UHGV virus genome: UHGV-0105104
DNA: 46,666 nt
Direction: 5' to 3' (one strand)
Origin: a virus
A program made the position numbers and the translations under genes. Shown piece by piece: positions 21,356 through 25,493 of the stretch. The notes beneath the pieces were generated by a model. It was given only the letters and a program-made list of their open reading frames with translations. It did not search any database and had not been told where the DNA came from. Position 1 is the stretch's first letter. Every line of letters starts with the position of its first letter.

Positions 21356-21380
21356 ACTCGTATGAAACAATCAATCGTTA

Positions 21381-21515
21381 CTTGCAATGAAACAATTAAT
21401 CGTTACAATAGAGGATGAGAAATGGCTATCACCGTCAAGAAGTGCGAGGTTTGCGGAAATGAGTTTATCGGAACTGCAAAAGCAAAATGTTGCTCAGGAA
21501 AGTGCAGGGTTAAAA
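21381..21515 (+). repeat. copy 1 of a ~135 bp direct repeat (second copy at 24849..24983) carrying the RBS, ATG and zinc-ribbon codons
   Basis: Both copies contain ttacaatagagg..agaaATGGCTATCACCGT(C/T)AAGAAGTGCGAGGTTTGCGGAAATGAGTTTATCGGAACTGCAAAAGCAA; roughly 85-90% identical by eye. Confidence 0.6.
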
Positions 21516-22463
21516 AATACAGGGACCAAAAGAAAGTCACACATTTCACAGGAGAGGCTAAGGGAGGTTCTTGATTACAACAAAGATACTGGGATATTCA
21601 CACGTAAGATAAAGACAGGTTCTCGTGTTAAAGTCGGAGATATTGCTGGCTGTCTTGATGTTAGTGGTTATCTGAGAATTAGCATAGATGGCAATCAATA
21701 TTGGGCGCAAAGACTCGCATGGATTTATGTTAATGGAGATAATATTGGGAATGCGAAAATTGAGCACATAAACAAAAATCGCGCTGACAACAGGATATGC
21801 AACCTTAGGCTTTCAACTGAAGTTTTAAATGAGAAAATGTGCTCAAAATGCAGGTCCGTTCTTCCAGCTACAAGCGAATACTTTTATGCAGATAAAAGTA
21901 TGAAACTTGGCTTTAGTTCCATATGCAAGAAGTGCTCTGGTAATAAAGGGAAGAGAGCAAGATACCTTGGTAATGGATTGAAGATTTGCTCTAAGTGTAA
22001 ATCTGTTCTTGAGGCGAACGAAGAAAACTTTAATAAAAATAAATCATCCCTTGATGGACTGCGTCCTGATTGCAAAAAATGTCAGGCTGAGTTCAGGAAA
22101 AATATTTATAAATTAAAAAAGTCAGAGATAAATGAAAAATCAAAACGTTATTACGATAAAAACAAGGAAAAGCATAACGAGAAGTCAAAGCAGTGGAGAC
22201 AGAAAAACAAGGGTGTTGTTAGATATCATCAGCGTAAATATAAGTATCTTAAAAGACGGGCGATACCATCATGGTTTGAACATGAAAGGGTTTTAATTGA
22301 AAAGGTTTATGAGATGGCTGGCGTTCTTGGTATGCAGGTTGATCACATAGTGCCAATAAATAGCAAATTGGTTTGTGGCCTTCACTGCTGGCATAACTTG
22401 CAATTACTTGCACCAAGTGAGAACAGATCTAAAAGCAACTCTTATTGGCCTGACATGCCATAG
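21387..22463 (+). CDS. HNH homing endonuclease (N-terminal HNH_3/AP2-type domain plus C-terminal HNH and CxxC fingers); body lacks its own start codon
   Basis: VLDYNKDTGIF...GYLRISIDGNQYWAQRLAWIYVNG...IEHINKNRADNRICNLR and C-terminal VDHIVPI...HNLQLLAPSENRSKSN. No ATG/GTG/TTG in frame between the zinc-ribbon region and the domain. Confidence 0.6.
   Translation: MKQLIVTIEDEKWLSPSRSARFAEMSLSELQKQNVAQESAGLKNTGTKRKSHISQERLREVLDYNKDTGIFTRKIKTGSRVKVGDIAGCLDVSGYLRISIDGNQYWAQRLAWIYVNGDNIGNAKIEHINKNRADNRICNLRLSTEVLNEKMCSKCRSVLPATSEYFYADKSMKLGFSSICKKCSGNKGKRARYLGNGLKICSKCKSVLEANEENFNKNKSSLDGLRPDCKKCQAEFRKNIYKLKKSEINEKSKRYYDKNKEKHNEKSKQWRQKNKGVVRYHQRKYKYLKRRAIPSWFEHERVLIEKVYEMAGVLGMQVDHIVPINSKLVCGLHCWHNLQLLAPSENRSKSNSYWPDMP
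21422..21574 (+). CDS. zinc-ribbon leader ORF (50 aa) in the frame +1 relative to the downstream HNH body; possible frameshift fusion partner
   Basis: MAITVKKCEVCGNEFIGTAKAKCCSGKCRVKKYRDQKK... with GAGGA Shine-Dalgarno 9 nt upstream. All three third-position differences between the two copies are synonymous in this frame. Confidence 0.45.
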   Translation: MAITVKKCEVCGNEFIGTAKAKCCSGKCRVKKYRDQKKVTHFTGEAKGGS

Positions 22464-22471
22464 GTGATGAA

Positions 22472-24385
22472 ATGCACAAAATAGATAAAATGATTTCAGA
22501 GATTGATATAGATAGATTAAAGCAATCAATAAAAATAGGCTCCATAGAGCCGTATGATTACCAATGGCTTGTTTACGCAAAGTGCGCTGAGGTTATTCGT
22601 AATTTTGGCAAGAAACCTGAACCAAGCTATGTTACAGCGTCTGTTTCATCAGGAAAGACCGTGATGATTTCAATGCTTTGCAGTAGATTTCAGGATATGG
22701 GGTGGGATGGCCTTGTAATCTCAAGGCAGGGCGAGATAGCTGAGCAGAATGCTGAGATGATGTGGGAGTGCGGTGTAAAAAATTCTCTTTATAGCGCCTC
22801 TCTTGGTAGGAAAAGTACAGCATACCCTATTATATGCGGTACTGAAGGAACAATCGCGAACGCACTTTTTGATAAAAAAGACGAATCAAATGGTGACGTT
22901 AAGAAAGGTGGATTGAGTGATTTTACCCCAAGATTTTGCCTGATCGATGAGTCCCACCAAGCTCCATGGCAGGATATTATTAGTGATAATCCAACAACAC
23001 AATATGGCGCAATACTTACTGAACTTAACAGGCGCTGCAAGGCAAGATATGGTCATGAAATGATAACGATTGGATTCACCGGTAGCCCATTCCGTGGTAC
23101 TGAATCAATGAAGGGTGCGTACTGGAGAAATGAAATAATAAACATTGATACAAAGTACATGGTAGATCGCGGTTTTGTTGTGCCAACAATCTTTGGTCTT
23201 CATGATGTTGATGATTTGAAATATGACTTGCATAACTTCCATGGTTCAGATGTTGATGGCACGCAGGACTTCACCGCAGAGCAACTCAAGCAGATGCAAA
23301 AAGAAATCCTTGAGCAAGGAACACTAACGCAGAAAATCATGCTCAAGGTTATGGAGCTTACAAAAAACAGAAACGGCGTATTGATTACATGCGCTGGCAA
23401 GAAGCACTGTCAGGAAGCGGCTAAATATTTACCCGAAGGAAGTTATGCTATCGTCACCGAGGATATGGGACAGAAAGCCAGACGCAAGGCGTTAAAGGAT
23501 GCATACACTGGCAAGATTAAATATGTTTTCCAAATTGGTTGCTTGACGACAGGCGTCAATATCCCCCTATGGGATACAAGCGTCATATTACGAAAAATAA
23601 TGTCACTCACTCTTCTTGTGCAGTTGCTTGGTCGCGGGATGCGCCTGCTGAAGAAAGAGCAAATTGATGCCGGGTATCATAAAGAAGACCATCTGGTTCT
23701 TGATTTCTCAGGCACGATGTTTGAGCTTGGTCAGCTGTATGAAGACCCAATTCTGGAAGAGGCTGAAGCGCAACGTTCGAAACGCAGTGGTGAACAGGTT
23801 CCGTGTCCGAAATGCGGAACAATGAACAGCCCATATGCGCGTCGCTGCATTGGCAAAGATGCACTATCTCCAGATGGTCGTTGTGAAGAGTTTTTCAGCT
23901 ACATCCGTTGCGGTTTCGACAAACATGGCATCCGTATTTTTGATGATGGATGTGGCACTAAAAACGACCCCACAGCGCGTTATTGCCGACATTGCGATCA
24001 CGTTTTGCGCGACCCGAATGCAGCATTGAATGAACGTGCGTATACGGATAATGAGTGGACTGAAGTTAAAGACTTCAAGATTGAATTAACGAAAGATGAA
24101 AAAGGTGTTGTTTATCGTTATTTAATTATGAAGGAAAACGGGAAGGAAGGATGGGCTAATGAGGTCTTTTATCCTTTTGGAAGACAGGAGAAGTATCTGA
24201 AAAATCAATTCAAGATTAAAGGCTTGTTAAATCACGTGTCAGACAGGAATCTGATTGATAACCTTATGAATTGCCACAGCGCAAAAGCATTCATGGCGTT
24301 TACTGGCCTTATCCGCGCGCCAAAGCGCATCACGCATCGCTTTAACGATAAAGGCCGAGACATAATCCACCGCAAAGAATTTTAA
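22472..24385 (+). CDS. superfamily-2 DNA helicase with C-terminal zinc ribbons
   Basis: Walker A SSGKT, DExH box IDESHQ, conserved C-terminal helicase motifs, then CPKCG...CRHC. Confidence 0.7.
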   Translation: MHKIDKMISEIDIDRLKQSIKIGSIEPYDYQWLVYAKCAEVIRNFGKKPEPSYVTASVSSGKTVMISMLCSRFQDMGWDGLVISRQGEIAEQNAEMMWECGVKNSLYSASLGRKSTAYPIICGTEGTIANALFDKKDESNGDVKKGGLSDFTPRFCLIDESHQAPWQDIISDNPTTQYGAILTELNRRCKARYGHEMITIGFTGSPFRGTESMKGAYWRNEIINIDTKYMVDRGFVVPTIFGLHDVDDLKYDLHNFHGSDVDGTQDFTAEQLKQMQKEILEQGTLTQKIMLKVMELTKNRNGVLITCAGKKHCQEAAKYLPEGSYAIVTEDMGQKARRKALKDAYTGKIKYVFQIGCLTTGVNIPLWDTSVILRKIMSLTLLVQLLGRGMRLLKKEQIDAGYHKEDHLVLDFSGTMFELGQLYEDPILEEAEAQRSKRSGEQVPCPKCGTMNSPYARRCIGKDALSPDGRCEEFFSYIRCGFDKHGIRIFDDGCGTKNDPTARYCRHCDHVLRDPNAALNERAYTDNEWTEVKDFKIELTKDEKGVVYRYLIMKENGKEGWANEVFYPFGRQEKYLKNQFKIKGLLNHVSDRNLIDNLMNCHSAKAFMAFTGLIRAPKRITHRFNDKGRDIIHRKEF

Positions 24386-24395
24386 GGAGAGCAAA

Positions 24396-24821
24396 GTGAA
24401 GCAGCTTGATAGCGGTATATGGGTATTTGATAGCGGTTATCGCGGAGAATGCCCAAAAGAGGAGACTGACCAGATGGGTTACGGCACATGGATGCAAAGC
24501 CAATTCCCTGATGTGCTCTGGTTTCACGTCCCGAATGAAACAGGAACATCAAGCCGCGTCCAGTTTGTATTGAAGCGCCAGAAGATGGGGGTTAAGACTG
24601 GAATAGGTGACAATGTGATAATGACGCCGGGAGTGAAGCACAGCTGCGGAATGATTGAGGCAAAGCGCCGAGATAAAAGCAAAAGCAGAGTAAGTAAAGA
24701 GCAATCGTCTGTGTTAACTGAGATGTGCAGGCTTGGTCATTATGCTGCCATCGCTTACGGCCTTGATGAACTAAAAAAAGCCACGCTTTTCTATTTTGGC
24801 TTGCTGAATGATGTAGATTGA
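24396..24821 (+). CDS. VRR-NUC domain nuclease
   Basis: GTG start with AAGGAGA Shine-Dalgarno; WFHVPNE...GIGDNVIMTPG...IEAKRRDKSK pattern. Confidence 0.55.
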   Translation: MKQLDSGIWVFDSGYRGECPKEETDQMGYGTWMQSQFPDVLWFHVPNETGTSSRVQFVLKRQKMGVKTGIGDNVIMTPGVKHSCGMIEAKRRDKSKSRVSKEQSSVLTEMCRLGHYAAIAYGLDELKKATLFYFGLLNDVD

Positions 24822-24848
24822 TGTATTGTTGGTAACAAATAAAAGTTG

Positions 24849-24983
24849 CTTGCAATGTAACGGTAAATGATTACAATAGAGGTTAAGAAATGGCTATCAC
24901 CGTTAAGAAGTGCGAGGTTTGCGGAAATGAGTTTATCGGAACTGCAAAAGCAAGATTTTGCTCAGGGAAGTGCAGAGTCAAAC
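24849..24983 (+). repeat. copy 2 of the ~135 bp RBS + zinc-ribbon module
   Basis: See copy 1; offset 3468 bp. Confidence 0.6.
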
Positions 24984-25493
24984 ATCATAGGAGGAAGAAA
25001 AATAATACCACGTGATGTTGTTTTGGATAGCTTAAGTTACAACCCTGAAACAGGGGTTTTCATTAGAAATAAGACGGGTGGAGGTGTAAGAAAGGGTAGT
25101 GTTGCTGGCAGGCGAAAACATAACGGATACATAGAGATAAGCATAAATAATAAAAGATACTACGCGCATCGCTTGGCATGGTTGATTTATTATGGTTTCT
25201 GGCCTGAAGGTCAAATTGATCACATCAATGGTGTGCGTGACGATAACAGGATTTGCAACTTAAGAATCGCAACAAATATGCAGAACCAGTATAACGCCAA
25301 AAAACCAAAAAATAACACATCAGGAGTTAAAGGCGTGTATTGGCAAAAACAGGTTAAAAAGTGGCAGGCTTACTGTGATGTTAACGGGAAAAGATACCAT
25401 CTTGGGTTATTCAGTGATATTGAGAGAGCGCGGTTGTCTGTGATGAAATTCAGAGAAAAGATGCATAAAGAATTCTGTAACCACGGAGAGTGA
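24867..25493 (+). CDS. HNH / AP2 homing endonuclease
   Basis: SYNPETGVF...NGYIEISINNKRYYAHRLAWLIYYGFWPEGQIDHINGVRDDNRICNLR plus AP2-like GVYWQKQVKKWQAYC...HLGLF. Confidence 0.65.
   Translation: MITIEVKKWLSPLRSARFAEMSLSELQKQDFAQGSAESNIIGGRKIIPRDVVLDSLSYNPETGVFIRNKTGGGVRKGSVAGRRKHNGYIEISINNKRYYAHRLAWLIYYGFWPEGQIDHINGVRDDNRICNLRIATNMQNQYNAKKPKNNTSGVKGVYWQKQVKKWQAYCDVNGKRYHLGLFSDIERARLSVMKFREKMHKEFCNHGE
24890..25015 (+). CDS. zinc-ribbon leader ORF (41 aa), frame +1 relative to the HNH body
   Basis: MAITVKKCEVCGNEFIGTAKARFCSGKCRVKHHRRKKNNTT. Confidence 0.45.
   Translation: MAITVKKCEVCGNEFIGTAKARFCSGKCRVKHHRRKKNNTT

Follow-up and report, generated by a model that had tools for sequence, protein, structure and literature searches.

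Zinc-ribbon genes at the front of two HNH endonuclease cassettes in a siphophage genome, and a predicted +1 start for the nuclease inside each ribbon frame

The viral genome sequence UHGV-0105104 (46,666 nucleotides (nt); its whole length is referred to here as the window) is that of a siphophage, whose kin are the Salmonella phages LPSTLL, Skate and Vi II-E1 and the Escherichia phage Bas78. It contains, at 21366-21523 and 24834-24991, two copies of a module of 158 nt that are 85% identical and spaced 3468 nt apart. In each copy, a sigma-70-like promoter is followed by an AGAGG Shine-Dalgarno (SD) sequence, by the ATG of a small zinc-ribbon open reading frame (ORF) and, in the +1 frame, by the body of an HNH endonuclease; all of these features are on the plus strand. 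An initial annotation of this DNA had described a duplicated ribosome-binding site and zinc-ribbon module in front of two HNH genes, and that module is indeed present, at the spacing just given; the length then assigned to it, ~135 bp, is slightly too short once the promoter is counted in.

Zinc-ribbon ORF 1 (21422-21574) encodes 50 amino acids (aa), with cysteines at positions 8, 11, 24 and 28 and a basic tail, and is preceded by AGAGGA at 21410-21415. Zinc-ribbon ORF 2 (24890-25015; 41 aa) has the same C8-x2-C11-x12-C24-x3-C28 pattern. The start coordinates of the ribbons leave a remainder of 2 on division by 3 and those of the bodies a remainder of 0; hence the bodies are +1 relative to the ribbon in both copies. 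The +1 frame is open throughout the ribbon on each occasion, as part of ORFs extending from 21387 to 22463 and from 24867 to 25493.

This layout is not peculiar to the window. Related loci were gathered from IMG/VR with a degenerate DNA pattern (17 contigs), from GenBank phage records with tblastn (77 records) and with a profile of the ribbon (a further 39 IMG/VR and 28 metagenome loci), which together amount to 66 non-identical contexts. A ribbon followed by a body in +1 is found in every nuclease-carrying related locus that was retrieved (more than 60, from isolate phages and metagenomes, with Salmonella, Escherichia, Shigella, Klebsiella, Vibrio, Listonella and Aeromonas as hosts). None of these loci has an in-frame ribbon-nuclease fusion, and the offset is +1 throughout. 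At least 7 kinds of nuclease body are joined to the ribbon head: HNH_3 with Cys repeats and HNH (window copy 1); Cys repeats and HNH alone (Bas78, L040, L062, L063 and L092); two HNH_3/AP2 types (window copy 2 and the LPST10 type); a Vibrio '..VGSVW..' type with a C-terminus that looks AP2-like by eye and has no Pfam match; a repeat-rich type, also without a Pfam match, that by eye resembles GIY-YIG/T5orf172 (pYD38-B and Vibrio 1.210.O); and an 'RYFTGKPC' type (L090 and L095). By sequence comparison, then, the arrangement of ribbon and +1 body is far beyond chance. Homologues with a contiguous single-frame gene had been named beforehand as the sign of a sequencing error; comparison turns up no in-frame version and the same +1 offset at more than 60 loci.

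Which frame is under selection changes along the module. Over ribbon codons 1-30, the two window copies differ at four third positions (codons 5, 26, 29 and 30) and at two second positions (giving K22R and C23F). None of the four third-position differences alters the ribbon-frame residue, and each alters the residue in the +1 frame, a pattern that the initial annotation had recognized while counting three such differences and passing over the second-position pair. Substitutions counted in four groups of close relatives extend this: between nt 36 and 90 of the ribbon ORF, 17 of 22 are synonymous when read in the ribbon frame, as against 0 of 22 in +1, which bears out the earlier claim that the ribbon frame is the selected one in the shared module. 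In the best-sampled group (group D), it is the +1 frame in which substitutions between nt 240 and 330, in the body, are synonymous (8 of 9, as against 0 of 9 in the ribbon frame). The signal flips frames after approximately codon 37 of the ribbon. Among relatives of copy 1, E-to-A and A-to-V changes in the ribbon-frame tail are silent in +1 (AGG to CGG and CTA to TTA, within the peptide 'SQERLREVL'), and constraint on the nuclease sets in ~10 codons ahead of the ribbon stop. Cys8, Cys11, Cys24, Cys28 and Arg34 are invariant in 12 divergent heads. Judged by these comparisons, the ribbon is a real coding sequence, consisting of ~37 constrained codons and a free tail.

Nuclease gene 1 (21459-22463; 334 aa when read from ATG 21459) specifies a passenger N-terminal peptide, a NUMOD4-like/HNH_3 module, Cys-repeat modules and a C-terminal endonuclease-VII-like HNH. 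Nuclease gene 2 (24927-25493; 188 aa) specifies HNH_3 and AP2. The HNH_3 matches of the two proteins (3.3e-9 and 1e-16) are above the Pfam cut-off, the AP2 match of nuclease 2 (1.8e-5) is below it, and both proteins match PHROG 99 (2e-45 and 5e-73). The catalytic-motif columns of HNH_3 are invariant, and the bodies retain all of the invariant residues of that family. Residues 125-334 of nuclease 1 are 82% identical to the entire corresponding protein of Bas78 (L002, 1402-2100), which is without the ~100-aa NUMOD4-like/HNH_3 module. An in-frame ATG at 21837 ('MCSKC') in nuclease 1 is the exact point at which the Bas78-type body starts, so the gene may, on this alignment, encode two nuclease modules or contain a second internal start.

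Homologues of nuclease 2 that have no ribbon are 158-175 aa long and begin M-(I/L)-T-Q-E..L..L.Y.PETG. Their start methionine aligns with an isoleucine (ATA 25002) in the window protein, and the equivalent in copy 1 is His-Ile. The alignment thus indicates that the ancestral nuclease start is lost in both window bodies, and the same comparison indicates as much for several other body types. In copy 2 (24989-25004), tandem AGG AGG arginine codons of the ribbon frame constitute a perfect AGGAGG at 24989-24994, followed by AAG and a run of five A residues at 24998-25002; this AGGAGG is 7 nt upstream of ATA 25002, and the two are apparently a fossil pair of SD and start. The hexamer itself is confined to the window and copy 2 of Bas78; close relatives have AGGTGG or AGACAG in its place (it is lost in L016, L017, L050 and L079). 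With the ancestral start gone, translation must enter the nuclease from upstream. The initial annotation had observed that the first HNH body has no ATG, GTG or TTG of its own downstream of the ribbon. This is literally correct for copy 1, but it overlooks the ATG at 21459, which is located within the ribbon and belongs to the +1 frame.

That ATG is preceded at a distance of 8 nt by GAGGT (21446-21450; the whole site is 21446-21461), and copy 2 has the same GAGGT and 8-nt spacing in front of ATG 24927 (24914-24929). When heads with a long +1 body are sorted into lineage groups, of which there are 12, every group has, inside the ribbon, a +1 start codon from which the frame runs uninterrupted into the body. 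Where this codon is placed in the ribbon ORF varies: nt 19 (a GTG, in L092), nt 25 (ATG, L098), nt 31 (ATG, L062, L063, L095, L089 and L090), nt 37 (ATG, Jersey-type heads and pYD38-B) and nt 46 (ATG, the Klebsiella/Aeromonas/Segz_1 type and four Vibrio-type groups). An SD-like 4-mer is located 3-9 nt upstream in nine of the groups and shifts along with the start (GAGGT for starts at nt 19 and 37, GAGG for nt 25, GGAG or AGGAG for nt 46), against a background of 6.5% of all ATGs in the window that carry such a motif. The start is also retained through changes of ribbon residue: TAT to CAT (Y to H) keeps the xATG, a change of E to D keeps the ATG (L048), and AAT to AGT (N to S) turns the +1 ATG into GTG (L040, L075 and L078), while the +1 start is located elsewhere in those lineages whose codon 16 is TAC, CAC or ATC. 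Ribbons without a +1 body, namely L027, L030 and L065 (Pseudomonas phage 15b, Yersinia phage P400, and L065 with its in-frame extension), have no +1 start. In L061, the nuclease has a TTG of its own with AGGA 4 nt upstream, and the ribbon carries three +1 stops. This pattern of starts and SD motifs is what would be predicted of a functional nested initiation site, and a frameshift model offers no reason for it.

The head upstream of the ribbon is also conserved. Its promoter, TTGCAA-16-TACAAT, is at 21382-21409 in cassette 1 and at 24850-24877 in cassette 2. A palindrome, GTAACG-N6-CGTTAC (consensus TTGAnnATGTAACGATAnAGCGTTACAAT), is placed after the -35 hexamer and overlaps the -10 element (TACAAT), and it precedes almost all of the ribbon ORFs. 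Jersey-type and Klebsiella-type heads have two tandem copies of it. In cassette 1, the distal copy (GAAACAatcaatCGTTAC, with two mismatches to GTAACG-N6-CGTTAC) is at 21364-21381 and the proximal copy, which occupies the promoter spacer and -10, is at 21389-21406. The cassette 2 head (24832-24877) has its distal copy at 24832-24849 and its proximal copy (GTAACGgtaaatGATTAC) at 24857-24874. Within the window, matches with at most two mismatches are found in the two cassette heads only, and matches elsewhere with three mismatches are at about chance level. The palindrome is conserved in 17 diverse heads (palindrome-bearing loci include the window, L021, L025, L026, L030, L051, L061-L063, L081, L088 and L092), and it is perfect in four unrelated heads, those of the stand-alone ribbons of Yersinia P400 (L030) and contig L081 among them. 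It looks like an operator. Because ribbon and palindrome occur together, the ribbon protein may bind the palindrome and autoregulate the cassette. The distance from the -10 element to the ribbon ATG is 12 nt in the window and only 6-9 nt in several heads (L062, L063, L065 and L098), whose ribbon mRNA would therefore have little or no leader. (An additional ATG, peculiar to copy 1, is present at 21415-21417, in ggATGagaaATG, at about the predicted start of transcription. It is in the third frame, opens an ORF of 15 codons and is not conserved in relatives.)

The ribbon itself most closely resembles, in Pfam, DUF2116 ('probable treble clef'), with scores of 14.6 and 18.5 bits that are below the 26.8-bit cut-off. 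An AF2 model (mean pLDDT 71) places strands at residues 5-7 and 14-16 as a beta-hairpin and a helix at 26-37. The best PDB matches in a fold search with Foldseek are to the gyrase inhibitor YacG, and are not significant (E = 3.2-9.4, TM 0.46-0.56); a search of solved structures by sequence with the ribbon profile yields spurious C2H2 half-motif matches only. The ribbon shares with DUF2116/YacG-like treble-clef ribbons the pattern C-x2-C-G..F...(F/C)CS..CR followed by a helix, with all matches below threshold. The model is consistent with a treble-clef-like ribbon bearing a basic C-terminal helix; inference of function from the DUF2116 and YacG matches is unjustified.

Stand-alone ribbon ORFs are found in Pseudomonas phage 15b, Yersinia phage P400 and contig L081, and a search of 5.8 billion proteins with the 50-aa ribbon returns three matches, each of 45-50 aa. 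The suggestion, made at the outset as one of two possibilities, that the ribbon ORFs stand alone as genes agrees with these lone ribbons and with the length of the only proteins found. A ribbon profile run against 1.84 billion representatives gives 541 matches and shows how widely this type of ribbon occurs, both in tandem arrays and on proteins other than nucleases; among the best 150 of the 541, none has the ribbon fused to an HNH_3 body. One distant protein among the profile matches, P0054, has three ribbons and a C-terminal HNH in a single chain. The ribbon motif, as KxCxxCGKxFx..KYCSxxCR, also recurs as 4-12 tandem copies in metagenome proteins of 200-670 aa (P0004-P0006, P0015, P0018 and P0070), an architecture that is without annotation in the search output.

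The two cassettes come and go separately among related phages. Cassette 1 is present alone in Skate and LPSTLL, cassette 2 alone in Bas77, Bas79 and HC6, and both are present in Bas78 and two metagenome phages. STGO-35-1 has neither: ribbon, promoter and nuclease are missing at both sites, the primase-helicase spacer is 75 nt long, a different small gene precedes the exonuclease, and the 7.3-kb locus has no ribbon. From this pattern of presence and absence, it follows that promoter, ribbon and nuclease move together. The initial annotation had entertained homing as the source of the duplication, an idea that is right only in part: the two copies are not the product of a local duplication, which is rejected, and are instead two different, independent cassettes that share one head.

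Deposited annotations of these genes disagree. For the same kind of gene, at least four different starts have been chosen in the records of LPSTLL, Bas78, Skate and pYD38-A (L001, L002, L003 and L028); the choices used are the internal ATG at nt 37 or 46, an ATG within the promoter (Bas78) and a GTG near the ribbon stop (pYD38-A). The Skate record, which is curated, and the LPSTLL record begin the HNH gene at the internal ATG, and Skate annotates a ribosome-binding site as well. Automatic gene calls likewise present the copy-2 family as 188-aa proteins starting MSLSELQ (P0153-P0156). The ribbon ORF is omitted from all four of the records named; among the relatives inspected it is annotated only in LPST10, where the genome ends cut off the nuclease.

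On balance, these observations lean, with moderate confidence, towards two overlapping genes in a free-standing homing-endonuclease cassette, with the ribbon gene and the palindrome as a portable and possibly self-regulating head. The repeated module would then be the conserved front end of a family of such cassettes (cleavage and homing being predicted properties). The nuclease would be a second gene, starting at the SD and ATG in +1 inside the ribbon ORF (21459 and 24927); from there ribosomes would pass through ~25-28 'passenger' codons that are free of constraint before reaching the nuclease proper, which has lost its ancestral start, while the ribbon ORF would end in an unconstrained tail overlapping the nuclease N-terminus. 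Both starts would be used. Ribosomes translating the ribbon ORF would limit initiation at the nested start, 37 nt downstream, and keep the level of nuclease low, and the ribbon protein would bind the palindrome and autoregulate the cassette.

Several observations weigh against this interpretation. The SD motif is missing from three of the 12 groups (L062/63/95, L089/90 and L088), and L088 offers only GTG and TTG as +1 starts, these also without an SD. L050 has ATA in place of the internal ATG and an intact nuclease body, of a near-identical family that normally has the ATG (P0156); conversely, the stand-alone ribbon L081 still carries an ATG at nt 46. The peptide between the internal ATG and the nuclease is under no constraint of its own (the 0 of 22 synonymous substitutions referred to above), which gives its translation no independent support. 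A transcription start ~7 nt after TACAAT would exclude the AGAGG of the ribbon from the transcript in Jersey-type heads, including those of the window. Finally, an in-phase AAAA is present, like the nested start, in all 12 groups, so that a frameshift would fit the same distribution.

The initial annotation had proposed such a frameshift: a programmed +1 shift making full-length endonucleases with the ribbon fused to HNH. The shift would occur at the in-phase A-run of the Lys-rich ribbon tail, where peptidyl-tRNA-Lys would re-pair from AAA to the overlapping AAA (or one A would be lost in transcription), and would generate a low level of ribbon-nuclease fusion beside free ribbon protein. The candidate slip site is a run of six A residues at 21512-21517 in copy 1, with a ribbon-frame AAA at its start (GTT AAA AAA TAC), and the A5 run at 24998-25002 in copy 2. 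A ribbon-frame AAA-A, within a run of A4-A7, is present downstream of the last Cys and ahead of the ribbon stop in every one of the 12 groups and in only two of five heads that have no need for it (L065 was read by eye), and the site coincides exactly with the flip of selection between frames. In the prfB gene, which encodes RF2, the shift codon follows an SD at a distance of 3 nt, a layout that AGGAGG-AAG-AAA-A of copy 2 (24989-25001) resembles; the codons AGG-AGG are rarely used. L050, with no internal ATG, would be accounted for. In-frame chains of zinc ribbon and HNH do exist elsewhere (P0054, weak matches to PHROG 1271 and 15471, and the proteins of Xu et al. 2013, PMC3592412).

However, the position of the slip site differs with the body (nt 90, 99, 105, 108 or 114), what occupies the A site is an ordinary codon (for Lys, Asn or Ser) and never a stop, and close relatives have AGGTGG or AGACAG where copy 2 has AGGAGG. 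The 5' regions of both copies fold no better than shuffled sequences (z = 0.57 and -1.19) and have no Rfam match at E <= 1, which counts against a frameshift stimulator. Runs of A5-A7 are short for efficient transcriptional slippage, and a Lys-rich tail yields an in-phase AAAA almost automatically. L062, which has its own ATG, is without a usable slip site before its first CxxC. The proposal also leaves unexplained the maintained +1 start, the SD that moves with it and the open +1 frame upstream of the slip site. A prfB-like shift at the ribbon stop of copy 1 (AAGGGAGG-T-TCT-TGA) can be rejected, since it would lose the +1 peptide 'SQERLREVL' that is under selection upstream of that stop. A 2016 review of recoding makes no mention of frameshifting in HNH or homing endonucleases, and nothing was found in the literature on this module in Jersey-like phages. 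With an SD and start inside the ribbon in 12 of 12 groups, and a candidate AAA-A that varies in position, is not followed by a slow or stop codon in the A site and has no significant RNA structure downstream of it, a programmed frameshift is unneeded; we regard it as unlikely in itself, and as less probable than a pair of overlapping genes, the second with its start nested in +1.

It is more doubtful still that the ribbon and the nuclease are separate genes, with the latter starting weakly at a near-cognate codon at or near its ancestral start (ATA 25002 or 25005 in copy 2, ATT 21543 in copy 1). ATA 25002 is aligned with the methionine of ribbon-less homologues and follows the perfect AGGAGG by 7 nt, relatives do have canonical starts of their own near the ancestral N-terminus (TTG with AGGA in L061, ATG with AGGA in L023, and ATG in L062 and L098), and a weak start might suit a toxic nuclease. 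Yet ATT 21543 is not preceded by an SD, the AGGAGG is not conserved in type-C relatives, and the constant +1 relation and the conserved internal start with its SD are left unexplained. That the loci are the outcome of an assembly or sequencing indel, or are decaying pseudogenes of what was formerly one in-frame gene, is very improbable. Runs of A are prone to indels and gene callers disagree over the start, but the same +1 offset is seen in two copies per genome and at more than 60 independent isolate and metagenome loci, with no in-frame version, which excludes sequencing or assembly error; and the bodies keep all of the HNH_3 invariant residues and, in group D, an excess of synonymous change.

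Two overlapping genes with a nested start can be compared with systems that are already familiar. Like T4 seg/mob and the HNH_3/AP2 and NUMOD-type free-standing homing endonucleases, the cassettes of the window place nuclease genes between replication and recombination genes, have their own promoter and are variously present and absent among close, collinear relatives. They would differ in that many unrelated bodies share one head (the palindrome promoter and the zinc-ribbon ORF), and in that the nuclease would start out of frame inside the ribbon ORF, its ancestral start having been lost. Rz/Rz1 of phage lambda and D/E of phiX174 are nested out-of-frame phage genes, in which the second gene also has its own SD and start in the +1 frame and each frame is constrained where the other is free. 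In contrast with these, the overlap here is partial (~90-115 nt) and at the 5' end of the longer gene, and it is the small gene that is the overlapped, upstream one and travels with interchangeable partners. The prfB gene likewise has a short upstream ORF and its main body in +1, and copy 2 shares with it an AGGAGG 3 nt before the re-pairing codon; here, however, the shift site has neither a stop nor a hungry codon, conservation is lacking both for that site and for the SD, and there is an independent +1 start. Zinc-ribbon HNH endonucleases have the ribbon within the same polypeptide as the HNH (Xu et al. 2013, PMC3592412); the association of a CxxC...CxxxC ribbon with an HNH nuclease is common to both, whereas the ribbon is in another frame in every locus seen here. 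What is new is the portable head common to many nuclease families, with its palindrome-bearing promoter and largely unannotated zinc-ribbon gene.

Should a frameshift operate after all, one transcript would give rise to free ribbon protein in abundance and to a very small amount of endonuclease tethered to the ribbon, a strategy that would be common to at least 7 nuclease families in phages of enterobacteria, Vibrio and Aeromonas and, to our knowledge, a new widespread class of phage recoding. If the ribbon and nuclease are instead two overlapping genes, as we favor, a small, conserved gene for a zinc ribbon is present in over 70 of the phage genomes already deposited. More generally, the data suggest a head for expression that is portable, in which a palindrome promoter, a small protein of predicted DNA-binding type and a nested out-of-frame nuclease start are joined with HNH_3/AP2 bodies, endonuclease-VII-like bodies and others of unassigned kind. 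This provides a testable model for the way in which phages keep selfish nucleases at low, timed levels, and its design may be reusable for tightly limited expression of toxic proteins.

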